From an uncultured Muribaculaceae bacterium (lineage in GTDB: Bacteria > Bacillota_I > Bacilli_A > RF39 > UBA660): DNA of 64,000 bases. This document shows positions 7,383 to 52,529 of this stretch, in pieces (the stretch's first letter is position 1; every line of letters starts with the position of its first letter). The translations under genes were made by a program, and so were the position numbers. The stretch spans positions 19,891 through 83,890 of the forward strand of contig CAYJKH010000003.1 of NCBI GenBank assembly GCA_964371025.1, read 5' to 3'. The notes under the pieces were generated by a model, which worked only from the letters and a program-made list of their open reading frames with translations, was not told where the DNA came from and did no database searches.

Positions 7383-8067
7383 TATTATACGTTCCTTTCT
7401 TAACAAAGCTTACTACTCTTCCTTCTTTTAAAGTAATAACTTGTTTTTTCATAGTATTAACTATATCTTTATCATGTGTTGCCATAATAATTGTAGTTCC
7501 ACGATCTTTATTAATTTTATCCAATACTTTCATTATTTCCATACTCATATCAGGATCTAAATTCCCGGTAGGCTCATCACAAATTAATAATTTTGGGTTA
7601 TTAACAATAGCTCGGGCTATTGCAACTCTTTGTTGCTCTCCACCTGATAGTTGAGTTGGATAATTATGTATTTTATTTTTTAGTCCAACATCTTCTAATG
7701 CTTTTAATACTTTTTCTCTTATTTCTATTTTAGGTGCTCCAATAACCTCTAAAGCAAATGCTACATTTTCAAAAACTGTTAGCTTTGGCAATAAACGATA
7801 ATCTTGAAAAACAATTCCTAGTTTTCTTCTTAATTTATATACTTTATGGTTTCTTAATTTTGCTACATTTAATCCCCCTAGAATTATTTGTCCATAAGTT
7901 GGTTTTTCCTCACGATAAAGCATTTTGATAAATGTTGATTTACCACTTCCAGAACTTCCTATAACAAAGGTAAATGAACCTTTTTCTATAGCTATATCTA
8001 AATTATGAATAGCAGTTACACCATTCTTATATTTTTTTATTACATCTTTTATTTTAATTAAATCCAT
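7369..8067 (-). CDS. ftsE: Cell-division ATP-binding protein FtsE
   Basis: Walker A GSSGSGKST, ABC signature LSGGEQQR, Walker B LLICDEPT. The start is placed at Met12 (MDLIKIKDV...), which has the better RBS. Confidence 0.85.
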   Translation of the reverse strand: MDLIKIKDVIKKYKNGVTAIHNLDIAIEKGSFTFVIGSSGSGKSTFIKMLYREEKPTYGQIILGGLNVAKLRNHKVYKLRRKLGIVFQDYRLLPKLTVFENVAFALEVIGAPKIEIREKVLKALEDVGLKNKIHNYPTQLSGGEQQRVAIARAIVNNPKLLICDEPTGNLDPDMSMEIMKVLDKINKDRGTTIIMATHDKDIVNTMKKQVITLKEGRVVSFVKKGTYNNEVV

Positions 8068-11019: not shown

Positions 11020-13509
11020 TTATTTACCACAACATTTTTTATATTTTAAACCTGATCCACAAGGACAATCATCATTTCTTCCTACTTTATCAGATTTTAA
11101 TTGTTTTTTTACAGTTTCTTTCCCACCATCATTTCTAACAATGTTTTTTTCAGCTTCTGTACGTTCAACATTCTGAACTACTTCGGCTTTTAATAAGAAT
11201 ATCGTAATATCTTGATCCATTTTTATCATCATATGATCAAATAAATCGTACCCTTCTGTTGCATATGCTCTTAGTGGATCTGTTTGAGCATATCCCCTAA
11301 GATGAATACCTTCACGTAAATGAGACATAGTATTAATATGCTCCATCCAATATTTATCTAATACTTTTAAATAAATTGCTTTTTCAAATTCAGAGGATAT
11401 TTCTTTTGGAATTGTTTTTAATTTAATTTCATATTCCTCAATAATCTTATTATTTATTAATTCTACTACTTCTTCGATAGATATATCTTTTATGTCGATT
11501 TCAGTAAGTGGTTTTTTTAGTAAGTTACTATTACTAAACTCAATTATTTCATGATTATCAATTTCTGTTAAATATCCTTCTGGTTCAACATGTGATTTAA
11601 CTAAGTCTTCAACGTGATTTCTAATAGTTTTTAAAACTGTATCATGAATAGATTCTTTTTCTAATATTTCATTTCTTATCCCGTAAATAATTTCTCTTTG
11701 GTTATTCATAACATCATCATATTGTAATAATTGTTTTCTTCTATCAAAGTTATTTCCCTCTACCCTCTTTTGGGCATTAGAAACTGATTTAGTAAATGTT
11801 TTACTTCTGATAGCATTATCTCCAAATCCCATAGAACTCATCATATTACCAATTCTATCTGATCCAAACATTACCATTAATTCATCTTTCATTGAAACGA
11901 AAAACTGTGTATAACCAGGATCCCCTTGTCGTCCAGCACGCCCTCTTAATTGATTATCAATTCGTCGTGATTCATGTCTTTCTGTCCCTACTACACATAA
12001 TCCTCCAAGTTTTTTAATTTCATCACTTAGTTTAATATCTGTACCACGACCTGCCATATTAGTTGCAATTGTAACTGATTTTTTTTGTCCAATATTAGAA
12101 ATAATTTCTGCTTCACGAGCATGATTTTTAGCATTTAGGATTTCATGAGAAATTTTTTCTGCTTTTAATAATTTAGAAATTAATTCACTACTTTCAATTG
12201 ATATAGTCCCTATTAAGACTGGTTGCCCTTTTTGATATCTTTCTTTAATGAATGCTATCATTGCTCTATATTTAGCTTCACGAGATGCATAGACTAAATC
12301 AGGTTCATCAATTCTTTGTAATGGTCTATTTGTTGGTATTTCAATAACATACATATTATATATGTTTCTAAATTCCTCTTCTTCTGTTTTAGCAGTTCCT
12401 GTCATTCCAGATAGTTTTTCATACATTCTAAATAGATTTTGATATGTAATTGTTGCCAAAGTTTTTGTTTCTTGATTTATCTTTAAGTTTTCTTTAGCTT
12501 CTATCGCTTGATGCAGTCCTTCTGAATATGCTCTTCCTTTCATCAATCTTCCTGTAAAAGGATCAACTATTACTATTTTATCTTCTTGTACTACATAATC
12601 AACATCTTTTTTCATTGAGTAATTAGCTCGTAAAGCTTGGTTAATAAAATGAACAATAGTAGAATTGTTTATTTCATATAAATTGTTTATAGAAAACATT
12701 TTTTCTGCTTTATGAACTCCATTTTCAGTCAAATTAACACTTTTTGTTTTATCATCGAATATAAAATCTTCTTCTATTTTTAAATTCTTAGAAAATTTAT
12801 CAGCATCCATATACTGAGAACTTTGTTTTAATTGTCCTCCTGAAATTATTAATGGTGTTCTTGCTTCATCAATTAACACTGAATCTATTTCATCTATAAT
12901 CGCATAATTTAATGGTCTTTGAACTTTATTCTCTAATTTAACTACCATATTATCTCTTAAATAATCAAATCCAATTTCATTGTTTGTAGAATATAATATA
13001 TCACAGTTATAGGCTTCTTGCTTTTCTTTAGGACTCATATCTCTTGTATTAACACTTACCGTTAATCCTAAAAATCTATGAATTCCACCCATCCATTCAG
13101 CATCACGAGATGCTAAATATTCATTAACCGTAATAATATGCACTCCTTTTGCAGTTAATGCATTTAAATACGCTGGCATAACACTAGTTAAGGTTTTTCC
13201 TTCTCCTGTTTTCATTTCTGATATATTCCCAAAATGAATAGATAATGCTCCTAAAAGTTGAACATAAAAAGGTTTTTCTCCAATAACTCTATATGATGCT
13301 TCTCTAGCTGTTGCAAAAGCTTCTACAACAATATCGTCTACTGTTTCACCTTTTTCTAAACGTTTTTTAAACTCTTCTGTTTTTGCACATAGCTTTTCAT
13401 CAGATAATTTTGTATATTCTTCATCTAACGCAATAATTTGATCAGCTATTTTTTCGAATTTTTTTAATTCTTTATATTCATGGTCTAATAACTTTCTTAA
13501 TATTTTCAT
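11020..13509 (-). CDS. secA: Preprotein translocase ATPase SecA
   Basis: About 829 aa. C-terminal zinc-binding tail CPCGSGLKYKKCCG. The start is taken at MKILRK..., preceded by a perfect AGGAGG RBS. The 10 upstream codons in the ORF track are probably UTR. Confidence 0.95.
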   Translation of the reverse strand: MKILRKLLDHEYKELKKFEKIADQIIALDEEYTKLSDEKLCAKTEEFKKRLEKGETVDDIVVEAFATAREASYRVIGEKPFYVQLLGALSIHFGNISEMKTGEGKTLTSVMPAYLNALTAKGVHIITVNEYLASRDAEWMGGIHRFLGLTVSVNTRDMSPKEKQEAYNCDILYSTNNEIGFDYLRDNMVVKLENKVQRPLNYAIIDEIDSVLIDEARTPLIISGGQLKQSSQYMDADKFSKNLKIEEDFIFDDKTKSVNLTENGVHKAEKMFSINNLYEINNSTIVHFINQALRANYSMKKDVDYVVQEDKIVIVDPFTGRLMKGRAYSEGLHQAIEAKENLKINQETKTLATITYQNLFRMYEKLSGMTGTAKTEEEEFRNIYNMYVIEIPTNRPLQRIDEPDLVYASREAKYRAMIAFIKERYQKGQPVLIGTISIESSELISKLLKAEKISHEILNAKNHAREAEIISNIGQKKSVTIATNMAGRGTDIKLSDEIKKLGGLCVVGTERHESRRIDNQLRGRAGRQGDPGYTQFFVSMKDELMVMFGSDRIGNMMSSMGFGDNAIRSKTFTKSVSNAQKRVEGNNFDRRKQLLQYDDVMNNQREIIYGIRNEILEKESIHDTVLKTIRNHVEDLVKSHVEPEGYLTEIDNHEIIEFSNSNLLKKPLTEIDIKDISIEEVVELINNKIIEEYEIKLKTIPKEISSEFEKAIYLKVLDKYWMEHINTMSHLREGIHLRGYAQTDPLRAYATEGYDLFDHMMIKMDQDITIFLLKAEVVQNVERTEAEKNIVRNDGGKETVKKQLKSDKVGRNDDCPCGSGLKYKKCCGK

Positions 13510-13581
13510 ATAAACCTCCTTAATTATATATTTTATCAAAAAAAAACTAAGAATTAAAGTATTTCTTAGTTTTTGTATTAA

Positions 13582-14109
13582 TTATTCGCTTTCAATTGTT
13601 CCGTAATTACCATCTTTTCTTTTATAAATAACATTAGATTTTCCAGTTTCAGCATCTTTATACATAAAGAAGTTATGCTCTAACAATTCCATTTGCAATA
13701 TAGCTTCTTCTTCATCCATTGGTTTTACTTCTATTACTTTGCGTTTAACGATTTTATTTGTTTGCTCTTTTTCTTCTTCTTCAAAATCCATAACAGCAAA
13801 GTCAATATTTGTCTTTTCATTTTTATTTATTCTAGTTTTATTCTTTTTGATTTGCTTTTCTATTTTATCTAAAGTAACATCTATAGCAGCATAAAAGTCT
13901 GCTTGTGTCCCTTCTGCTCTTAATATAAAATTGTTTAATGGTAATGTTATTTCTACAGTTTGTTCATGTTTTTTTGCTTTTGCTATAATAGTAGCTCGAA
14001 TACTGTCATTTGTTTTTAGATATTTATTTAATCTCTCCATTTTTGCTTCAGCATATTCTTTCATAGCATCAGTGATTTTAATTTTGTCTCCTCTAATTAG
14101 TATTTCCAT
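13582..14109 (-). CDS. hpf: Ribosome hibernation promoting factor (long HPF)
   Basis: 175 aa; MEILIRG..ITDAMKEYAE..ERLNKY pattern. Confidence 0.85.
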   Translation of the reverse strand: MEILIRGDKIKITDAMKEYAEAKMERLNKYLKTNDSIRATIIAKAKKHEQTVEITLPLNNFILRAEGTQADFYAAIDVTLDKIEKQIKKNKTRINKNEKTNIDFAVMDFEEEEKEQTNKIVKRKVIEVKPMDEEEAILQMELLEHNFFMYKDAETGKSNVIYKRKDGNYGTIESE

Positions 14110-14317
14110 AATACCACCTCCATAATTATAGTTTATATTAATTATAAAAAAAAATCTACTTTTTTATATTTATTCTTTTAAAATTTTCAATTTAGTATTA
14201 AAATAAAGATATTAAATATAAGGATTGATATTTAATAATATTATAAGGAGGTATATAAATAAAAAATAGATCCAAAAAAAATATAGAGAGGATCTAGACA
14301 CAAAAAAAAATAAAACA

Positions 14318-15400
14318 TTATGAATTATGTTTTATTTTTTTTATTACTTCTTTTGTTATTTTTTGAGGTTTATCAGATATTATGCTAGTTTTAATAACAA
14401 ATAAAATAACAATAATTAATAATATAACATATATTATTTGAGCATATAGAGGATCTCCTAGTACATAAAAGACTGTCGCTACTGCAAAAAGAATGTTAAT
14501 AAAATATATTATAAATACTGTTTTACGTTGTGAGAAATTCATACCTAATAACTGATGATGGAGATGTTCTTTGTCCGCTTTAAATGGTGGTTGTTTTTTT
14601 AATAATCTTCTTATAATTGCAAATAGAGTATCTAACACAGGTATTGCTAGTATTAATACTGGTACAAAAAATGATGTTAATGCTGCTGCTTTAAATTCTA
14701 ATAATGTAATTACTGCTATTATAAATCCAATAAATGTACAGCAATCCCCTGCGAATATTTTAGCTGGATATGAGTTATGAATTAAAAATCCTAATGTAGA
14801 TCCTATCATTATTAATGTAAGAATCATAACAAGTGATTCTCCTCTGCCTTGGAAAAATCCAATATAAGCAACAGTAGCAAAGAATATAACAGCTATACCC
14901 CCACTCAATCCATCTAGTCCGTCTATTAAATTTACTATATTAGCACATGCTACAATAAATATTATTGTTAATGGATATGACCATAACCCAAAGTCAAAAG
15001 CATAGCCAAAGGCTGTTATATTATTTAGGAGTATTTCTCCATAAAATGTTATAATAGCTGCTGCTAGGATATGACCTATTAACTTATAACTTGATTTTAA
15101 TGGCTTTATATCATCAATTATTCCAGTTAGTATTATAATAAAGCTCCCTATTAAAATTGAATTCATTCTTATACTTTCTTCACCAAAAAGCATATAACCA
15201 AGTAAAAACGAGATAAATATTCCAAGAGCCCCTAATTTTGGGATTTCTTTTTTATGAATATGTCTATTGCCTTCAGCAGTACTAGGTTTATCAATTGCTC
15301 CTATATGATGAGCAATTTTTTTCATTACCGGCATTAATATTACCGCGAATATAAAAGTAACTAATATTATTTTAATTGCATAAAGTATATCTATTTCCAT
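14318..15400 (-). CDS. Glycosyltransferase family 4 polyprenyl-phosphate HexNAc-1-phosphate transferase (TagO/WecA-like, MraY superfamily)
   Basis: Motifs IDKPS...HxxxIPKLGALG and NxVNLIDGLDGL in a multi-TM protein. These are closer to WecA/TagO than to MraY. Confidence 0.65.
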   Translation of the reverse strand: MEIDILYAIKIILVTFIFAVILMPVMKKIAHHIGAIDKPSTAEGNRHIHKKEIPKLGALGIFISFLLGYMLFGEESIRMNSILIGSFIIILTGIIDDIKPLKSSYKLIGHILAAAIITFYGEILLNNITAFGYAFDFGLWSYPLTIIFIVACANIVNLIDGLDGLSGGIAVIFFATVAYIGFFQGRGESLVMILTLIMIGSTLGFLIHNSYPAKIFAGDCCTFIGFIIAVITLLEFKAAALTSFFVPVLILAIPVLDTLFAIIRRLLKKQPPFKADKEHLHHQLLGMNFSQRKTVFIIYFINILFAVATVFYVLGDPLYAQIIYVILLIIVILFVIKTSIISDKPQKITKEVIKKIKHNS

Positions 15401-31266: not shown

Positions 31267-31977
31267 TTATTTAGCCATAAATGCAAGAATATATATTATT
31301 ATACCTATAATTATCAAAATAGCAGGATATATTAAATAACTAGCAAATGCTGCTTCTTTTAACATAAATATTTTTTCATAAATAATTTTATTGTTTTTTG
31401 CATTTTCTTTTATAACTTCATTAGGGTCAAATATAATATCATTAGGATTAGAAATATTTTCTTGCTGTTTTTGATTTGTTTTTACTTTTACATATGCAAG
31501 CCCTGTTCCATAACTAGAATCTGTTTTACTTAATTCTAACTTCTTCTTTGCTATAACATAATCAGAATAATAAACTCTTCTATCTTTTAATATAATGGAT
31601 CTATAATAATGTTCCATTTCTTCTGGTAAATAGCTGGTAATTTCATCAAAATGACTTTTTAGGAATTGTTCTTTTAAATTATTTAAACACTTTGTATATA
31701 TTCCTATTTGAAATATAGCAATATTTTTTATATCTTCTCTTTTTAATTTTTCATCAAAATATGAATCTTTTGGCATTTCCAATAAAGTTCGATATTTAAT
31801 TAATTTATGATCATTATTTAATATTTCAATATCTTTTAGATTAAGCTTATTTAAACAGTAACCTTTTTCATGTAAATATTTCATAGTTAAGTCCATATAG
31901 AAAAAGACCTCTTTTAAATCTTTTTGTGAAGGATTACTATTATACCAAGTTTCAATCGTTGTTTTATCATGATCCAT
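31267..31977 (-). CDS. Hypothetical tail-anchored protein: a cytoplasmic domain of about 205 aa plus a single C-terminal TM helix
   Basis: 236 aa. The only hydrophobic segment is at the extreme C-terminus (ASYLIYPAILIIIGIIIYILAFMAK). It lies 66 nt downstream of the sigma-factor gene, after a hairpin terminator. Confidence 0.5.
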   Translation of the reverse strand: MDHDKTTIETWYNSNPSQKDLKEVFFYMDLTMKYLHEKGYCLNKLNLKDIEILNNDHKLIKYRTLLEMPKDSYFDEKLKREDIKNIAIFQIGIYTKCLNNLKEQFLKSHFDEITSYLPEEMEHYYRSIILKDRRVYYSDYVIAKKKLELSKTDSSYGTGLAYVKVKTNQKQQENISNPNDIIFDPNEVIKENAKNNKIIYEKIFMLKEAAFASYLIYPAILIIIGIIIYILAFMAK

Positions 31978-32042: not shown

Positions 32043-32627
32043 TTATGTTTTATTTTCACATTCTAATAATATTTTCCTAACTTTACATAATCTACTATCA
32101 ACTGTTCCTACTGATATATCTAATAACTTTGATATTTCTAAATATGAAAAACCATTATATCTCATTTCAAATACTGTTGAATTTTTTAAGTTAAGAATAT
32201 TTTTATATTTAAAAAATATAAATTCTGTATATATATCATCTAATAACATATCTTTATTTTTGATTAAGTCCTTGTTATAGTCGGTATACTCATTTAATTC
32301 TACTGAATTATTAATATATTCATTTTTCAAAGCACTTAGCTTCTTACAAAAATTTTGGATACTTCTTTCCACACATAATATAGCAAATGTATAAAACGTG
32401 TTTTTCATTGAAACATCAAAGGTTGCTATCGCGGAAGAAAAACCGATATATCCCTCTTGAACTAAATCATCATAATCTGCACCTTTAGTTATAATAAAAC
32501 CGCTATATTTATATGCAATTTTTTTTATTATAGGTTTGTACTTTTTATATAGATAATCATTATAATAATCATCCTTTTCCTTTATTAAATATAATATTTC
32601 ATTATCGTTAATATCTTTATACTCCAT
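32043..32627 (-). CDS. sigH: Sigma-70-family RNA polymerase sigma factor, SigH-like by size and position
   Basis: 194 aa. Region 2 reads DDLVQEGYIGFSSAIATFD. The region 4 HTH reads YLEISKLLDISVGTVDSRLCKVRKIL. It lies immediately after rlmB/mrnC/cysS, as sigH does in Bacillus and Staphylococcus. Confidence 0.7.
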   Translation of the reverse strand: MEYKDINDNEILYLIKEKDDYYNDYLYKKYKPIIKKIAYKYSGFIITKGADYDDLVQEGYIGFSSAIATFDVSMKNTFYTFAILCVERSIQNFCKKLSALKNEYINNSVELNEYTDYNKDLIKNKDMLLDDIYTEFIFFKYKNILNLKNSTVFEMRYNGFSYLEISKLLDISVGTVDSRLCKVRKILLECENKT

Positions 32628-43344: not shown

Positions 43345-43641
43345 TTAATTCTCTGGCATTTTCAAAACAAATTCTCCATCTTTTGTAAATAAGTATTTTT
43401 CTCTTGCATACCTTGCTACATATTCAGGATCTTGTAGTTTTTCACTATCTACTGTTAATTTTTCTTCTTCCTCTTTTAAGGCAATCAACTCTTCTTCGAG
43501 TTTTCCTTTTTCTTGATATTTATTATATATTTCTACCCACATACTACCGATTGTAGTTGTAAGCCCAATTACCATAAATAGGCAAATACATGAAAGTAAA
43601 AATGTTTTTTTTATTTTTTTTGATTTCTTTTGCTTTTTCAT
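43345..43641 (-). CDS. divIC: Septum-formation initiator (FtsB/DivIC family)
   Basis: 98 aa, a single TM plus a coiled coil. The C-terminal DPEYVARYAREKYLF matches the FtsB/DivIC signature. Confidence 0.7.
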   Translation of the reverse strand: MKKQKKSKKIKKTFLLSCICLFMVIGLTTTIGSMWVEIYNKYQEKGKLEEELIALKEEEEKLTVDSEKLQDPEYVARYAREKYLFTKDGEFVLKMPEN

Positions 43642-43748
43642 ATATAAACCTACCTTTCTATCATAATTATATAAATATTTATTATAAGTAACAATGTATT
43701 TATGAGTATTATTATAAAATATACACTTTTTTACAAAAAAAAAGGATA

Positions 43749-44030
43749 TTATCCTTCTTTTTCTTCTTCTGGCTCTTCAGCTTTATTATAAGCCTCAATT
43801 ATTGACACTTGAAACATATTTCTAACTTCTGGGTTTATAGGGTGAGCAATATCTCTGTAAACACCTGTTGCTGTTTTACGACTAGGCATTGCAATAAATA
43901 GTCCAGAATCTCCTTCGATGATTCTTATATCATGAACTGCAAAGCAATCATCTAATAAAATAGAAGCAATTCCTTTCATGCGAGATCCTTCTTTTTCAAT
44001 TTTACGTACATTAACTGATGTAATTTTCAT
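43749..44030 (-). CDS. spoVG: SpoVG-family regulator
   Basis: 93 aa; [11 protein letters not shown]... highly conserved SpoVG N-terminus. Confidence 0.9.
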
Positions 44031-44115
44031 ACTATGTCCTCCTTATAAAGTAGTTAACTTTATATTTTAATAATATAACATGTATAAAAAAATTGCAACA
44101 TATTATTTATTGCAA

Positions 44116-44919
44116 TTATTTAAAAGTTATTTCATTACTTAAATCTACAAATACACTTAATGGAATTTCTTCTGCTCTACTTAATAAAGATAAATTATTT
44201 TCCTTTAGAATCTTTGAAATTAAGTCAATGGATTGGCCTTTAAAGTTATTATTTAAATTTTTTCTTTTGAACTGAAAAGCCACTTTTAGCATATGTTCAA
44301 AATTATTGATATCATTTAATTCTAACTTAGTTTCTTTTTCTGTAAATGAAATTATACAACTATCAACTTTTGGCATGGGAATAAACTCTTCTCTTCCAAC
44401 AAAAAACTCATTTTTTATATCATAAAAATAACTTAAGTAAACAGATAATGACCCATATGTCTTTTTATTAGGAGGGGATGTTAATCGATCTCCTACTTCT
44501 TTTTGTACCATTAATACAATTTTGTTGAAATAAAGCTTAGAATTTACAAGTTTCATTATTATAGGTGTAGTAATATAATATGGTAGATTACTAACAAAAA
44601 ATACTTTTTTATATTTATATTTACTAATATCTTTTTCAAAATCAACATTCAAAAAGTCTTCGTATATTATTTCAATATTATCAAAGTTTTTTAATTTACT
44701 ATTTAACCCTATTTCCAGTTCTTTATCTATTTCATACGCAATAACTTTACCTGCTCTTTTTGCAAGTTCTTTTGTCATTATTGCTCCCCCTGGCCCAACT
44801 TCAATAACTAAAGAATCTTTATCAATGTCTGCAATATCTACAATTTTTTCTACTACATTATTATCTTTTAAAAAGTTTTGTCCATATTTTTTTTTGAATT
44901 TATTATTATATTTTTCCAT
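44116..44919 (-). CDS. rsmA: 16S rRNA (adenine1518/1519-N6)-dimethyltransferase RsmA/KsgA
   Basis: N-terminal KKKYGQNFL and the SAM-binding EVGPGGAIMT. Confidence 0.9.
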   Translation of the reverse strand: MEKYNNKFKKKYGQNFLKDNNVVEKIVDIADIDKDSLVIEVGPGGAIMTKELAKRAGKVIAYEIDKELEIGLNSKLKNFDNIEIIYEDFLNVDFEKDISKYKYKKVFFVSNLPYYITTPIIMKLVNSKLYFNKIVLMVQKEVGDRLTSPPNKKTYGSLSVYLSYFYDIKNEFFVGREEFIPMPKVDSCIISFTEKETKLELNDINNFEHMLKVAFQFKRKNLNNNFKGQSIDLISKILKENNLSLLSRAEEIPLSVFVDLSNEITFK

Positions 44920-44959: not shown

Positions 44960-45472
44960 TTATAAAACTTCTTCTTCTATTGTACTTTGATTTGTTTTTG
45001 TCATTTCATTAGTTTTTTCTGGCAGTTCCATACTTGTTTCTTTTTTATTATCATGTTTTTTTATATTTATCATAAAAATAATATTAGCTATAATTAATCC
45101 ATATATCATAATTATTAATGTAGGAATAAAGTCACTGAAAAAAACAAAATTAATATCAAATCCTAGTTCTTGGTTTAATATCATTCCTTTATCAAATATT
45201 GTTCTTAACCCCACTATTATAATTGCACTAAAAACAAATACTGATGTTATGTTATAAAATATATTATTAGTAACTTGTTTTTGTTTAAATATAATATTAA
45301 TTATATATACTAGTAAAAGTATTCCTAAAGGAATAAAGATATCAATATATTCAGTTAAACTCTTCTCAATACGAGTATTCATTCCCATTATTATATACAT
45401 AACTATTGCAAATACTCCAATAAACATTAGATATTTTAGAATAGAAAATAATTTATTTAATATATTAATCAT
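44960..45472 (-). CDS. Four-TM small membrane protein (170 aa). It is the last gene of the SipW/TasA-like operon and a candidate assembly or anchoring factor.
   Basis: Four hydrophobic helices plus an acidic C-terminal tail. The strong GAGGGGG RBS overlaps the upstream stop. Confidence 0.55.
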   Translation of the reverse strand: MINILNKLFSILKYLMFIGVFAIVMYIIMGMNTRIEKSLTEYIDIFIPLGILLLVYIINIIFKQKQVTNNIFYNITSVFVFSAIIIVGLRTIFDKGMILNQELGFDINFVFFSDFIPTLIIMIYGLIIANIIFMINIKKHDNKKETSMELPEKTNEMTKTNQSTIEEEVL

Positions 45473-45473
45473 A

Positions 45474-46154
45474 TTATACCCCCTCTAATGTTTTATACCA
45501 TTCAGATACAACTAATACTAGATTTATAGAACTTCTATAATTGCCAATTATATAATAATAACTATCCTTTGTTTGATTTAAAATATTAATCATAGCATAG
45601 TCACTGTTAAAATGATAACTAGAATTATTTTTTAAAGTAGACTGTAAATATTCTGTTCCTTCAATATTTTCTTCTACTAGTGTTTGGATAAATTTTTGAT
45701 TATCTCCTAAAATATCACTCATTTCCTCTTTGATACTCATATCATACATTTGTCTTACTAAACACTCATTAATAACGTTTTGTTGATACCTTTGGTTTAA
45801 GTTATATACATCTAATAAATCTACTTCTTTTTTATTAAGTAAATCATTTGATTCTTTATTATTAAATGAATTAGTACATATTGATATCTTACTTTTAATT
45901 TCACTCATTTCATACTGATCAAAAGAACCATTATATGTATTTAAATTAAACCATTCTATATTCTTATTTATCTGGTTAATATTAGTTGTTAATTCATCAG
46001 TAAATGTTAAATCTTTCTCTGTTTTTATAAATGTCTTATTTACCTCTTGATAGTGATATGCATTAAGTAATACTATAAAGAAAGCTAATCCAAAAATAAG
46101 TCCTGTAACTGTATAACCAATTATATTTTTATATTCATTTATTATTTTTATCAT
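45474..46154 (-). CDS. Bitopic membrane protein (226 aa): an N-terminal TM anchor plus an extracytoplasmic domain. It is in the operon with sipW and a candidate TapA-like accessory factor.
   Basis: N-terminal TM (IIGYTVTGLIFGLAFFIVLL) then an N/Q/S-rich domain. Its RBS TAGGAGT embeds the sipW stop codon. Confidence 0.55.
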   Translation of the reverse strand: MIKIINEYKNIIGYTVTGLIFGLAFFIVLLNAYHYQEVNKTFIKTEKDLTFTDELTTNINQINKNIEWFNLNTYNGSFDQYEMSEIKSKISICTNSFNNKESNDLLNKKEVDLLDVYNLNQRYQQNVINECLVRQMYDMSIKEEMSDILGDNQKFIQTLVEENIEGTEYLQSTLKNNSSYHFNSDYAMINILNQTKDSYYYIIGNYRSSINLVLVVSEWYKTLEGV

Positions 46155-46162
46155 ATTTACTC

Positions 46163-46828
46163 CTATAATATTTCTATATCTTCTTCTTTTGTTTCTTTAT
46201 CTATTCTATTTCTTGTTTCTTTTTTTGTTATTTTTCTAAAAATAAATTTAATCAATTTAATAATATCATATATAACTATCGCAATTGAAGGGATTAATAT
46301 TAGCAATATCCAACCATATGATGTTGATATAAATGACTGAATATATCCGATTTTTGGAACTCTTAATACTACTTCTCCATATATATCATCATGTGTAACT
46401 AAAGCTGTATCTGCTGTATTATTTGCATCTCCTTTAGTTTTATAAGCTACTTCTCCATCACTATTTTTTTGAACTCCTATTATTCTATGTGTAATAGTAA
46501 TACCGTCATATCTTTTATCAGATGACGAAAAAGTTATAATATCCCCTTTTTCTAATTGTTCATCTACTCTCTTAACAACAATAGCATCATATACATTTAT
46601 ACTTGGAACCATGCTTGGACTTATTATTATATAAGCGTTAAAAAGTGGTTGTTTCCCTTCTTCACCATTAATATTGATAAGACTATTAACAAAATAAAAT
46701 CCTACAAAGCCAAATATTATTAAAATAACAAAAATTACAGCATATAAAATAGTACGAATTGTTATATCTACTATTCTTTTTAATTTTTGCCAAGTTGTAT
46801 ATGAAGAATATTTTTTTTCTTTCTCCAT
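46163..46828 (-). CDS. sipW: SipW-type (ER/archaeal-like, S26B) signal peptidase I with a C-terminal TM anchor
   Basis: 221 aa. N-terminal TM and a catalytic Ser box (IISPSMVPSINVYDAIVV). The conserved GDAN is present, and a second TM lies near the C-terminus (GWILLILIPSIAIVIYDII), as in B. subtilis SipW. Confidence 0.75.
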   Translation of the reverse strand: MEKEKKYSSYTTWQKLKRIVDITIRTILYAVIFVILIIFGFVGFYFVNSLININGEEGKQPLFNAYIIISPSMVPSINVYDAIVVKRVDEQLEKGDIITFSSSDKRYDGITITHRIIGVQKNSDGEVAYKTKGDANNTADTALVTHDDIYGEVVLRVPKIGYIQSFISTSYGWILLILIPSIAIVIYDIIKLIKFIFRKITKKETRNRIDKETKEEDIEIL

Positions 46829-46907
46829 AATAATCCCTCTATTCTACTATAGAATAACATATTATAATTTAAATTAAAAGAGTTGAGCTGATTTTATTTT
46901 TTTCTTT

Positions 46908-46936
46908 ACAAAAAAAAAAAAAATGCAGAGCATTTT
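46908..46936 (-). terminator. Strong rho-independent terminator immediately after paralog 1 (hairpin AAAAUGC-UCU-GCAUUUU plus 13 U residues)
   Basis: Perfect 7-bp stem with a 3-nt loop, followed by a T13 run on the minus strand. The stop codon is part of the 5' arm. Confidence 0.75.
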
Positions 46937-47567
46937 AATTTGAAGTATTTGCATAAACATTTACTTTTATTTTATAACTTCTTGATATACTATCAATTGC
47001 AGTTTCTTCACTAACCCACATTCTCAATCTAAAATCATTAGCATGAACTACTTCTTCTGCTGTTGTATTAGATATAGTGTCTTTATATAATAACATTGAT
47101 TCAGCAGGTGATCCTAGTGCTGAAACACTACCTTGAGGAGTGAATGCTTTTGGAGTTGCAGTAATAGTTGTCGGAACATATGAACTACCACTTTCTTCTT
47201 CTAAGTATAATCTTACATCATTGTCTCCTAAAAAGTTCCCTTCTGCTTCATTTGCTTTTTCTGCTACTATTTCATAGTTAATATCTGTAACCCCAGAAAC
47301 TGTTGCCGATACTGTAAAGTCAAAAGCATTTCCTGTTCCTGTAAGAACTTTTCCTTCATTGTCTGATAAAGGTAATGCATTTGTTATTGAAATTCCTGCT
47401 GTTTCTTCACTATATGTCATTGCAATAGTACCCGTTGTTAAAGAGTTATTTTCAGTTCCTTCTAAAGCTACTGAAAATAGTGCATATGATATTCCTACTA
47501 CAGATACAACTAATACAGCGATTGCTAAAACTGATAAAATTATTTGTTTTGATACATTATTATTCAT
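46935..47567 (-). CDS. TasA/camelysin-like secreted protein with a SipW-cognate signal peptide, paralog 1 of 4 (210 aa)
   Basis: N-terminal signal anchor ending ...VGISYALFSVALEG, then TTGTIAMTYSEE. Compare TasA ...GGGTWAAFND...ASGTLDLS. The C-terminus carries the FRLRMWV motif shared by all four paralogs. Confidence 0.6.
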   Translation of the reverse strand: MNNNVSKQIILSVLAIAVLVVSVVGISYALFSVALEGTENNSLTTGTIAMTYSEETAGISITNALPLSDNEGKVLTGTGNAFDFTVSATVSGVTDINYEIVAEKANEAEGNFLGDNDVRLYLEEESGSSYVPTTITATPKAFTPQGSVSALGSPAESMLLYKDTISNTTAEEVVHANDFRLRMWVSEETAIDSISRSYKIKVNVYANTSN

Positions 47568-47579
47568 ATTTCTCTCCTA

Positions 47580-48227
47580 TTAATTTGTTTCTACTTTAGC
47601 ATGAACTTTAACACTAAAATTACTTGGTGTTGCATTTACTTCATAAGTATCAGCTAACCATAATCTTACTCTAACTTTTTCACTAAAAGTTGAAGTAAAT
47701 GAATTTTCATATATTTCTTTTACACTTTGTCCACCATCTAATGTAGCATTTGTATAACTATTATATAACGCTAAAGGTGCTAATTCAGTTTCACTAACTT
47801 CGCCATCTGTGATGTATAATTTAATATCTTCTTCTGGGACAGCTGGTGATGTTGATGTATTTTCTAAGTATACACTATAATTACCATTACAAACTGAATC
47901 TGAACATGTACATGAAACTGTTACATCTGTATATGCAGTTGAATATCCAGCAATTGGATCCGGATCATTTACTAATGCTTTTCCTACTTCATCACTAATA
48001 GGATGTGCCGAATTAATTGATATTGGATTTCCTTCATTTATTACACAACTCATTGTTCCTGTTGAAATTGTATTTGTAGATCTACTAGCACCAGATGCTG
48101 ACCATGTAAATGCCGCATATGTTATTGCTACTACAGATCCAACTAGTACTAGTATTAATAATAACGTTAATACCAATCTTCCTGCTAAACCTTTTTTTTC
48201 ATTTTTGCTTTCTTCTTTGTTTTCCAT
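47580..48227 (-). CDS. TasA/camelysin-like secreted protein with a SipW-cognate signal peptide, paralog 2 of 4 (215 aa). It is uniquely Cys-rich.
   Basis: ...VAITYAAFTWSASG...STGTMSCVINEG. Five Cys residues (C..VTVSCTCSDSVCNG). C-terminal VRVRLWLADTY. Confidence 0.6.
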   Translation of the reverse strand: MENKEESKNEKKGLAGRLVLTLLLILVLVGSVVAITYAAFTWSASGASRSTNTISTGTMSCVINEGNPISINSAHPISDEVGKALVNDPDPIAGYSTAYTDVTVSCTCSDSVCNGNYSVYLENTSTSPAVPEEDIKLYITDGEVSETELAPLALYNSYTNATLDGGQSVKEIYENSFTSTFSEKVRVRLWLADTYEVNATPSNFSVKVHAKVETN

Positions 48228-48241
48228 AAAAATTCCTCTCT

Positions 48242-48853
48242 TTATTTACTCTTTGCATAAATATTTATTTTAACAGCATATTTTTTTACTGAAAAATCCA
48301 TTATTGCACTTTCATCTAACCACATTCTTAACCTATAAGTGTCAATTTTACTTTGTGAGTGTGACTCTGTAAGCAATACCATTGCACCTTTTGGACTTCC
48401 AAACATACTAGATGTTGTTATTGGAATAAATTTAGTAGGAGCCATTACTTCCTTATAAGTATCTCCTTCTTTTTGTTCTAAGTATAATTTTATTTCACTA
48501 TCTTTTATAGTTGATGTAGCCTCTTTTATTGCTGCTACTTCATATGTAATAGCACTATTACCTACTAGTTCCGATTTTACAGTAAAATCAAAATACTCAT
48601 CACTCCCATTTAATTTTTTACCAGCCTCATCAGAAGTTGGAACCGCATTTTCTATACTTATTCCATTTGTATCTTCTGTGTAAGTCATCGATATAGTACC
48701 TGAACTTACTTCATTTTTATTCCTTCCAGAATTAGCATTCATAAAGTTAGAAAAAGATATCCCTACTACTGAAACTACTAAAAGTAAAAGAATAAGAATT
48801 ATTAAAATTACTTCTTTTGTTATTGTTTTTTGTTTTTCTTCTTTTTTTTCCAT
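48242..48853 (-). CDS. TasA/camelysin-like secreted protein with a SipW-cognate signal peptide, paralog 3 of 4 (203 aa)
   Basis: ...VGISFSNFMNANSG...SSGTISMTYTED. YFDFTV and YRLRMWL motifs. Its RBS overlaps the paralog 4 stop. Confidence 0.6.
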   Translation of the reverse strand: MEKKEEKQKTITKEVILIILILLLLVVSVVGISFSNFMNANSGRNKNEVSSGTISMTYTEDTNGISIENAVPTSDEAGKKLNGSDEYFDFTVKSELVGNSAITYEVAAIKEATSTIKDSEIKLYLEQKEGDTYKEVMAPTKFIPITTSSMFGSPKGAMVLLTESHSQSKIDTYRLRMWLDESAIMDFSVKKYAVKINIYAKSK

Positions 48854-48862
48854 ATTAACACC

Positions 48863-49483
48863 TTACTCAAATGCCTTTACATTAATTTTGATTGAAAACT
48901 CCTTTGGATCATTCGAAATGGTATATGTATCTGCTAACCACATTCTTAATCTAAAATTTTTAGAACTAGTTGTAGAAAATGTATCAGTATATAGTCTTCT
49001 GCCAGCTGGGTCTGACTCTGCCACTCTTAACTCTGAATAAGTCGGAACACTTGCTCCATCATAACCAGGATACGGATTTTCAGTTATACCATCTGTTAAA
49101 TATATTTTTACATAATCCTCAGATATTTCGTTAGGAACTATAACTTTTTCTGAATATACTTCATAATTAATAATAGAATTACCTACTAAAGATGCTGATA
49201 CAGTAAAATCAAAATATCCTTGAATAACTCCATCAACTGAACTATTTTGTAAATTTTTTCCTACTTCATCTGATAATGGTAGACTATTTTCAATATTAAT
49301 TCCATCCGTTTTCTCAGAATACGCAAATGTAATAGCTCCAGTTGCTATTTTATTTTCTCGTTCACCTTCTGATGAAAAAGAGAAAATTGCGTAAGTAACT
49401 GTTACCGAAGCAACAATTAAAAGAATTGTCATTATAACAATTAAAATTACGTGGTTTCTATGAGATTTTTTTTGTTTATCCAC
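48863..49483 (-). CDS. TasA/camelysin-like secreted protein with a SipW-cognate signal peptide, paralog 4 of 4. It is the first gene of the operon and uses a GTG start (206 aa).
   Basis: ...VTVTYAIFSFSSEG...ATGAITFAYSEK. YFDFTV and FRLRMWLADTY motifs. TAGGAGGT RBS. Confidence 0.6.
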   Translation of the reverse strand: MDKQKKSHRNHVILIVIMTILLIVASVTVTYAIFSFSSEGERENKIATGAITFAYSEKTDGINIENSLPLSDEVGKNLQNSSVDGVIQGYFDFTVSASLVGNSIINYEVYSEKVIVPNEISEDYVKIYLTDGITENPYPGYDGASVPTYSELRVAESDPAGRRLYTDTFSTTSSKNFRLRMWLADTYTISNDPKEFSIKINVKAFE

Positions 49484-49507
49484 TCTTAAAATACCTCCTA
49501 TAATAAA

Positions 49508-49536
49508 AGTATATGATACTTTAGAGATTTTTACAA
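49508..49536 (-). promoter_or_regulatory. Sigma-A-type promoter for the four-paralog/sipW operon (-35 TTGTAA, 17-nt spacer, -10 TATACT)
   Basis: Minus strand reads TTGTAAaaatctctaaagtatcaTATACT, about 25 nt upstream of the RBS of paralog 4. Confidence 0.5.
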
Positions 49537-51875: not shown

Positions 51876-52529
51876 TTATTTTAATAAGTATGAATTGTTT
51901 TTAGTAAAAATAAATCTTTCTCCTATTTCCTTAATTCCATTTATTAATGTTGTATCTTTTACAATTAATTTTATTTCAACACTTTCAAGAATTTGTTTTT
52001 GATAATTGTTATTAATAAATTTAGATACTTCTTTAATTATTTTTGCTTCTTTTGCTTTGTCATCTGCTGTTATCAAAGTTTCAAGTTTAATAATAATGCA
52101 CTCTTCTGTTGACTTTTTTAATATTTCTTTTACATCTTTTTTGATTATTTTATTAATTTCTATAAAATCTTTCTTTAATAATTTAAATATTCCCTCTTCT
52201 TTTTCATATGTTTGTTTTTCAATACTTTCAAGAAGCTTTTTCTCACGTATAATAATTGATTTTTTAAATTTTTTCATTATTTCTTTTCTATATATCTCCA
52301 TTATATTATTATATTTTTCATCATCTAATATTATTTTATTTCTTTTTGACACTTCAATTAACTTACCTCTAATATTATCCATAGAATCCAATGGAGGTTT
52401 TTTTATTAGTGATAGTATATCTTCATCAATTAATATTTGAGTATTTTTTTTCACTAATTCCTGAATAGCTTTTAAATAATTATTATTATGTTGTTCCTTT
52501 ATGTTTTCTAGCATTTCCTGATTATTCAT
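51876..52529 (-). CDS. Hypothetical K/E/I-rich protein (217 aa) between mfd and metG
   Basis: Long ORF with no TM. It is highly charged and probably alpha-helical, and no family was recognised. The metG promoter (TGgTATAAT) lies downstream of it, so this is not a T-box leader. Confidence 0.4.
   Translation of the reverse strand: MNNQEMLENIKEQHNNNYLKAIQELVKKNTQILIDEDILSLIKKPPLDSMDNIRGKLIEVSKRNKIILDDEKYNNIMEIYRKEIMKKFKKSIIIREKKLLESIEKQTYEKEEGIFKLLKKDFIEINKIIKKDVKEILKKSTEECIIIKLETLITADDKAKEAKIIKEVSKFINNNYQKQILESVEIKLIVKDTTLINGIKEIGERFIFTKNNSYLLK

Follow-up and report, generated by a model that had tools for sequence, protein, structure and literature searches.

Organization of the locus

The present analysis concerns a cluster of seven genes in a 64,000-nucleotide stretch of DNA from an uncultured bacterium (contig CAYJKH010000003.1), which is referred to below, at its full length, as the window. 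The cluster encodes four paralogous proteins with an N-terminal hydrophobic segment (P1 to P4), a signal peptidase and two further membrane proteins. Its best place is among the SipW-dependent fibre systems typified by BsaA of Clostridium perfringens and TasA of Bacillus subtilis, of which it is a divergent variant, and the core of an earlier interpretation made from the sequence alone (hereafter the original prediction) is in this respect reasonable. The seven consecutive minus-strand open reading frames (ORFs) lie exactly where it had placed them, in a window with a G+C content of about 27%. The features of the locus are the following.

49508-49536 (-): candidate sigma-70-like promoter TTGTAA-17-TATACT, upstream of P1; 9 of 12 consensus matches
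48863-49483 (-): paralog P1, type-1 subunit; 206 residues, GTG start; signal peptide residues 1-32; predicted cleavage VTYA↓IF
48242-48853 (-): paralog P2, type-2 subunit; 203 residues; predicted cleavage ISFS↓NF
47580-48227 (-): paralog P3, divergent type-1 sister; 215 residues; predicted cleavage ITYA↓AF
46935-47567 (-): paralog P4, type-3 subunit, last of the subunit block; 210 residues; predicted cleavage ISYA↓LF
46829-46934 (-): spacer of 106 nucleotides between P4 and the peptidase gene; weak hairpin with T-run, candidate promoter, ribosome-binding site
46163-46828 (-): SipW-like signal peptidase I (archaeal/endoplasmic reticulum (ER) type, S26B); 221 residues; N- and C-terminal transmembrane helices
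45474-46154 (-): bitopic membrane protein; 226 residues; transmembrane helix at about residues 11-29, then an all-helical bundle
44960-45472 (-): four-helix transmembrane protein; 170 residues; charged C-terminal tail

From the end of P1 onward, the intergenic gaps measure 9, 14, 12, 106, 8 and 1 nucleotides; the genes are closely packed, but none overlaps the next. Hydropathy analysis gave one hydrophobic segment for each paralog, two for the peptidase, one for the 226-residue protein and four for the 170-residue protein, in agreement with the topologies first proposed for the last two. When the seven proteins were scanned against Pfam and NCBIfam, only the peptidase received a family name. 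No sortase, prepilin peptidase or ATPase came out of these scans of the locus proteins, and on this point too the original prediction stands.

Sequence and predicted fold of the four paralogs

P1 to P4 had been described as paralogs, and they are: their pairwise identity is 32-37% and 27 columns of their alignment are invariant. P2 stands nearest to the family consensus, with 264 bits on the hidden Markov model (HMM) of the family. The motifs listed for the end of the hydrophobic helix (TYAIFS, SFSNFM, TYAAFT and SYALFS) and for the segment behind it (TGAITF, SGTISM, TGTMSC and TGTIAM) were all found. The blocks YFDFTV and [FY]RLRMW, on the other hand, had been attributed to all four proteins and fail for P3, which reads AYTDVTV and VRVRLW; P4 has AFDFTV. 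The short paralogs have polar residues at their C-termini. A tblastn search with P2 against plasmids gave no match.

In the AlphaFold2 model of P1 (predicted local distance difference test (pLDDT) 84), a transmembrane helix is followed by a beta-sandwich. The core of this model has a pLDDT above 90, residues 31-60 are at 56-68 and residues 38-41 fall below 50. Such a low-confidence N-terminal stretch beside a confident core is the pattern expected for an exchangeable N-terminal extension.

P3 differs from the other three in a further respect. It is the only one to contain cysteines (C61, C106, C108 and C113, in …VSCTCSDSVCNG…), and it is an extra copy in the window genome, for which the closest loci offer no counterpart by position.

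The predicted cleavage site

We counted conservation over 267 family sequences, using P1 numbering throughout. Gly28 is present in 240 of them, Ser or Thr at position 30 in 247, Ala32 in 232 (Ser replaces it in 11 more, which makes 243 with either residue) and Phe34 in 238. The -5 Gly, -3 Ser/Thr, -1 Ala and +2 Phe are thus each found in 87-93% of the sequences. Judged by its sequence, this pattern is a cleavage signature of signal peptidase I and matches the proven site of TasA. The predicted site, G-x-[ST]-[YF]-A↓x-F, closes the signal peptide, and the window and nine related loci all have a sipW-like gene next to the paralogs. Cleavage there would leave I33 of P1, N36 of P2, A39 of P3 and L30 of P4 as the first mature residues.

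The comparison with TasA was made with an alignment rebuilt from a TasA sequence that was verified against PDB entries 8aur and 5of1 and whose mature chain starts at Ala28. Aligned with TasA by hhalign, the paralog family gave a P value of 0.0022 and a probability of 12.9%, over the signal peptide and about 40 mature residues only. In this alignment VTYA↓IF is in register with GTWA↓AF, TGAITF with SGTLDL and NSLP with NLKP. The resemblance of the signal region to that of TasA, on which the original prediction had leaned, is therefore borne out for the cleavage regions. A TasA HMM retrieved 170 family sequences; 22 of about 485 ORFs from outside the family also appeared, all of them with E ≥2. 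A distant TasA-like relationship of the paralogs is plausible.

A conserved N-terminus and three residues resembling the BsaA triad

The first 45 or so mature residues, among them about residues 33-57, form the most conserved stretch of the family. All four window paralogs have Asn44, Glu57 and Lys76, and among the 267 family sequences these residues occur in 253, 253 and 229, respectively. This is of interest in view of what a preprint reports for BsaA, a remote TasA homolog of C. perfringens encoded with sipW (PMC11580942). BsaA needs SipW for its export and polymerisation (PMC7395162; PMC11580942), and polymerises by donor-strand exchange, the donor strand being its first 11 or so mature residues; an intermolecular isopeptide bond between N35, in the donor segment, and K74, which like the catalysing E56 belongs to the acceptor sandwich, locks the subunits (PMC11580942). 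The same N-E-K triad was noticed in more than 100 other proteins, some of them from Coprobacillaceae, and is missing from TasA (PMC11580942), in which residues 28-38 serve as the donor strand (PMC9674648).

In mature numbering, Asn44, Glu57 and Lys76 are positions 12, 25 and 44, and the residues of the BsaA triad positions 8, 29 and 47. Compared by order and spacing alone, the three residues resemble the triad that locks BsaA. The acceptor Lys is missing in 12 of 58 long, adhesin-type members of the family (see below) versus 21 of 195 others, a weak trend (Fisher p 0.07).

The signal peptidase

The 221-residue peptidase scores 96.5 bits on TIGR02228, the model of archaeal-type signal peptidase I, and so lies above its cut-off of 51.85. 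On NF046067, the Bacillus SipW equivalog, it reaches 99.6 bits, below the cut-off of 190. Because the first cut-off is passed and the second missed, we regard the enzyme, from its sequence, as SipW-like and of ER/archaeal type, and not as a strict SipW ortholog. Its closest solved relatives are the eukaryotic catalytic subunits SEC11A and SEC11C, and in an alignment with human SEC11A its SPSM, THR and KGDAN motifs stand opposite SGSM, VHR and KGDNN. The catalytic motifs SxSM, HR and GDxN (Ser, His in place of Lys, and Asp) are kept across 8 loci. A SipW-type peptidase with intact catalytic motifs is thus indeed encoded at the locus. That it is dedicated to the locus is supported by its position, since its gene adjoins the paralogs in the window and in the nine related loci.

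Related loci and a large family with long members

In nine related loci from gut metagenomes, the module lies between tatD and ksgA, as it does in the window, and comprises three to five paralogs, the peptidase and homologs of the 226- and 170-residue proteins. The assemblies concerned are labelled as uncultured Erysipelotrichaceae, Bacilli or "Tenericutes". Around the module lie housekeeping genes from the vicinity of the origin, with gyrA, dnaX, recR, pth, mfd, metG and tatD on one side and ksgA, spoVG, divIC, tilS and ftsH on the other; the module is therefore a vertically inherited core feature and not an island. A neighbour-joining tree groups the paralogs into positional orthologs of type 1 (P1, with P3 as an extra sister), type 2 (P2) and type 3 (P4), so that at least three paralog types are conserved, in fixed order, in the nine related genomes.

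In 7 of the 10 loci a fourth type, a short and divergent "minor" paralog of 171-210 residues, which lacks the A-x-F motif, is encoded 3' of the peptidase gene, between it and the gene of the 226-residue protein (L003:10644-11165, L004:10658-11179, L001:9374-9922, L005:5998-6540 and L008:3037-3669, as well as in L014 and L015). The window, L006 and L009 do not have it.

The family as a whole is much larger. An exhaustive HMMER search returned 5,792 representatives of clusters at 50% identity with E ≤1e-3, of which 2,894 had E ≤1e-10. A word-indexed search gave 306 relatives, one of them from Candidatus Onthousia (Bacilli incertae sedis). Many members are 400-1,743 residues long. In these the family domain occupies residues 2-200 or so, and the C-terminal part carries Big_2, Flg_new/InlB-B-repeat or PARCEL/DUF285 surface repeats. 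All 65 long members inspected have the N-terminal hydrophobic segment and nearly all keep G-x-[ST]-[YF]-A-x-F; neither an LPXTG-like signal with a hydrophobic tail nor a second hydrophobic segment was found in any of the 65. Their genes lie apart from the core locus and from any sipW-like gene (for example L011:7998-13232, L013:8001-11981 and L010:2676-4157; also P0276, P0337 and P0342).

Two observations concern these long proteins. A C-terminal motif of approximately the form GVRPV[VI]YLKS…G[GD][GS]G[TS]xxxPY recurs in P0248, P0263, P0264, P0320, P0324, P0344, P0361 and others, and by its sequence is the mark of an unrecognised domain common to putative adhesins. The neighbours of the 1,743-residue member of L011, one on each side, are a glutaredoxin-like ORF of 151 residues with a membrane anchor (13293-13748) and an FxLYD-domain ORF of 144 residues (7512-7946); the same locus also has two short, very divergent family-like ORFs, at 13878-14441 and 14496-15080.

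The two membrane proteins

The homolog search found 26 clusters of relatives for the 226-residue protein. Its model has a pLDDT of 81 and gave only generic helical-bundle fold matches. Across 26 homologs C93 and C131 are invariant, as is an N-x-Y-H motif just after the transmembrane helix; conservation of this kind may reflect a disulfide outside the cytoplasm or some functional site. The 170-residue protein belongs to no Pfam or NCBIfam family, and its gene always stands behind that of the 226-residue protein in the compared loci.

Transcription units

The original prediction had all seven genes transcribed from a single promoter. The sequence TTGTAA-17-TATACT is indeed present at 49536-49508, but it cannot be distinguished from chance: in this AT-rich region we observed 40 promoter-like sites, where 38.3 are expected from shuffles. 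The gap between tatD and the first paralog is about 35-50 nucleotides in three relatives.

In the window, the spacer in front of the peptidase gene contains a weak hairpin (AATGC-TCT-GCATT) with a T-run at about 46910-46934 and a candidate internal promoter at about 46846-46873 (TGTTATTCT / TATAGT), followed by the ribosome-binding site of the peptidase gene. In six relatives, the stretch from the last paralog to the peptidase gene holds a hairpin with a T-run and then a conserved TGnTATTAT-like element; in the window this arrangement is weaker than in them. The terminator scan of the window did not call the spacer hairpin by its criteria, and folding of the spacer RNA is unexceptional (z -1.8). 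Given the hairpin with T-run and the conserved element found at this place in six relatives, and more weakly in the window, transcription of all seven genes as one operon is doubtful, and with a promoter at chance level this part of the original prediction is unsupported. The cluster probably forms two transcription units, with the subunit genes apart from those of the peptidase and the membrane proteins. The spacer arrangement is reminiscent of C. perfringens, in which a terminator lies behind the major subunit gene, bsaA (PMC7395162).

Discussion

Among the sortase-independent protein filaments known from Gram-positive bacteria, the SipW-dependent fibres of the TasA/BsaA kind are the main ones, and work on them has, to our knowledge, been almost confined to Bacillus and C. 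perfringens. We see an even chance that the locus described here specifies a sortase-independent, SipW-dependent surface fibre of this kind, built from a divergent and unnamed family of subunits. A fibre assembled by strand exchange, and possibly locked, is favoured because of the cleavage signature, the conserved N-terminus, the N-E-K residues and the precedent of BsaA and TasA.

On this model, the subunits would be exported by the Sec pathway, each held in the membrane by its signal peptide until the peptidase cleaves behind Ala32. The N-terminal stretch thus freed (about residues 33-57) could then enter the sandwich of a neighbouring subunit as donor strand, which would give a heteropolymeric fibre. 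A covalent lock between subunits may follow, in the form of an Asn-Lys isopeptide bond that involves Asn44, Glu57 and Lys76, like the one demonstrated for N35, E56 and K74 of BsaA. The long members, which carry Big_2, Flg_new or PARCEL repeats and lack any further anchor, could join the fibre as adhesin-bearing subunits. In other loci, the minor paralog that lacks the cleavage motif might stay in the membrane as an anchor or a terminator. Finally, the 226- and 170-residue proteins could constitute a lineage-specific platform for assembly or anchoring, which is the least supported step of the proposal.

Several results weigh against this interpretation. None of P1 to P4 matches a Pfam or NCBIfam family; PF12389 (Peptidase_M73) and NF046066 (the NCBIfam TasA model) gave no hit at E up to 1. 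Among 102 family members, PF12389 was matched by none at E up to 10. NF046066 and TIGR04088 gave a few sub-threshold matches, for 3 members (best E 8.2e-5) and 4 members (best E 0.12), respectively, and these count in favour of the interpretation. The match to Peptidase_M73 or TIGR04088 that the original prediction had itself put forward as a check therefore fails for the four window proteins. A search of PDB sequences with the profile of the 102 members returned only transmembrane-helix noise and did not find TasA. Once the signal peptides were removed, hhalign kept the same register with a P value of 0.37, which is not significant. Foldseek found no PDB match for the paralog model below E 1e-3. 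Because no curated cut-off of the BsaA/TasA models is reached and the comparison of mature domains is not significant, the paralogs do not belong to the TasA/camelysin family as its models define it. Lys76 is substituted in about 14% of the family. If the peptidase were the only signal peptidase I of the genome, its position would say less about its dedication. Polymerisation, strand exchange included, is inferred, and the equivalence of the two N-E-K sets is putative.

A bolder proposal goes further than a variant of known fibres. The locus could represent an undescribed class of Gram-positive pilus, i.e. a sortase-independent heteropolymer that grows from its base as the SipW-type peptidase sets free the donor strand of each tethered subunit, with a covalent Asn44-Lys76 lock, interchangeable adhesins of up to 1,743 residues as caps, an uncleavable paralog as terminator and a dedicated two-protein membrane platform. 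We hold this to be possible but rather doubtful.

One could also assume that the paralogs are secreted and processed by the peptidase without forming a strand-exchange polymer, and act as monomeric or loosely associated proteins of the envelope or matrix, or as binding proteins; the N-terminal domain of the long members would then be a conserved stalk or a module for wall association. The matches of the predicted fold, which include the pilin domains of FimG, FimI, FimF and PapG, are weak and generic, and they would suit this view, as would a mature domain without significant similarity to TasA and the fusion of the same domain to many different surface repeats, which also fits a general module of envelope association. 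It accounts less well for the concentration of conservation in the first 45 or so mature residues, with a near-invariant Asn, Glu and Lys like those of the BsaA triad, or for an N-terminal segment modelled at low confidence next to a confident core. At least three paralog types in fixed order across genomes are, besides, typical of multi-subunit assemblies. We find this alternative unlikely.

Less probable still is that the hydrophobic segment remains uncleaved, the paralogs being N-terminally anchored surface proteins and the adjoining enzyme a general signal peptidase. The segment is long (19-20 residues), AlphaFold draws it as one continuous helix from residue 3 to 37, and an uncleaved helix would explain how the long members, which have no other anchor, are retained at the surface. 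However, the -3 and -1 residues and the helix-breaking Gly at -5 are conserved to a degree that would be unexpected for a plain anchor, in register with a proven TasA cleavage site. The absence of exactly this motif from one sub-clade suggests that it matters in the others, and the peptidase gene has been kept inside the locus in the window and in all nine related loci.

A reading of the paralogs as pseudopilins or type IV pilin-like proteins, with a retained N-terminal helix and a prepilin peptidase encoded elsewhere, is very improbable and was rejected on motif and gene content: a short basic N-terminus, a hydrophobic helix, a beta-rich domain and sub-threshold matches of 7 of the 102 members to Pfam Pilin_N (best E 0.007) recall such proteins, but the class III motif (G/A↓hydrophobic-xxx-E) is absent, the consensus before the helix being K-K/Q, no PilB, PilC or PilD is encoded in the locus and about 30 kb of its flanks, and the peptidase of the locus is a serine enzyme of family S26 and not an aspartic prepilin peptidase. 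Sortase-dependent pilins were rejected as well, given the absence of LPXTG from the 65 long members, the polar C-termini of the short paralogs and the absence of a sortase from the locus.

Returning to a SipW-dependent fibre, one of the closest described counterparts is sipW-bsaA-bsaB-bsaC(-RSD) of C. perfringens (PMC7395162; PMC11580942), where several secreted subunits, remotely like TasA, likewise accompany a SipW-type peptidase. The order of the genes is reversed, the subunits coming first here and the peptidase after them. C. perfringens has one major subunit plus BsaB, whereas the present locus has three or four conserved subunit types; it also has the vWA protein BsaC and a two-component system, both missing here, where two unrelated membrane proteins are found instead. 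The tapA-sipW-tasA operon of B. subtilis (PMC9674648, PMC10151520) shares with the locus a dedicated SipW, independence from sortase and a signal/cleavage region in register. On the other hand, mature TasA has 234 residues and the subunits of the locus about 170, and the B. subtilis system comprises a PF12389 match and TapA, while the locus has neither, but four paralogs and two membrane proteins. In B. cereus, sipW-tasA-(capP)-calY (PMC4292775; 10.1101/2024.02.27.582368) also brings SipW together with an accessory factor and a pair of fibre subunits that are paralogs; these subunits, however, are bona fide members of PF12389, and CapP/BC1280 is unrelated to the 226- and 170-residue proteins. 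In the archaeal bundling pili AbpA/AbpB (PDB 7ueg; PMC9245690), AbpA has no dedicated signal peptidase, and its accessory genes are different. A functional analogy may finally be drawn with the chaperone-usher pili Fim and Pap, heteropolymers of paralogous beta-sandwich subunits with N-terminal donor strands, tip adhesins that include a pilin domain, and a subunit that terminates or anchors the fibre. These are Gram-negative and need a periplasmic chaperone and an outer-membrane usher, and no homology is implied.

The original prediction had presented the multi-paralog composition with its accessory membrane proteins as undescribed. This holds in part: sipW-bsaA-bsaB and other operons with several BsaA/TasA paralogs are known (PMC7395162, PMC11580942), but the 226- and 170-residue proteins do appear to be previously undescribed. 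What is genuinely new is the unannotated subunit family, the conserved set of several subunit types, the adhesin fusions and these two membrane proteins.

With this locus, the principle of the SipW-dependent fibre would be extended to a large unannotated family from gut Bacilli that are uncultured and have small genomes. It points to a heteropolymer in which three or more conserved subunit types take part and to a route by which large adhesins could be displayed without a cell-wall anchor, and it adds two conserved membrane proteins that have no counterpart in the known systems. The model predicts an isopeptide lock between Asn44 and Lys76 that would depend on cleavage at Ala32. In gut commensals, surface structures of this sort may mediate adhesion and the formation of biofilms.

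Other observations in the window

Some relatives carry sporulation genes around the module. In L001 (11133-14424), L014 and L015, yabG, veg and yabP lie between ksgA and divIC, together with yabQ in L001, and spoVT is found near metG. In the window spoVG stands alone between ksgA and divIC (43345-44919) and there is no spoVT; its genome seems to have lost sporulation genes that are still present in relatives.

Between mfd and metG, the window encodes a Lys/Glu-rich ORF of 217 residues without Pfam match (51876-52529, minus strand). Unannotated ORFs of 210-212 residues occur at the same place after mfd in L014 and L015.

Elsewhere in the window, an ORF of 236 residues without Pfam match lies directly downstream of the gene of a small sigma-70 family factor (r2 + r4_2), the pair occupying 31267-31977 and 32043-32627 on the minus strand. 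The 236-residue protein may be the anti-sigma partner of this factor.

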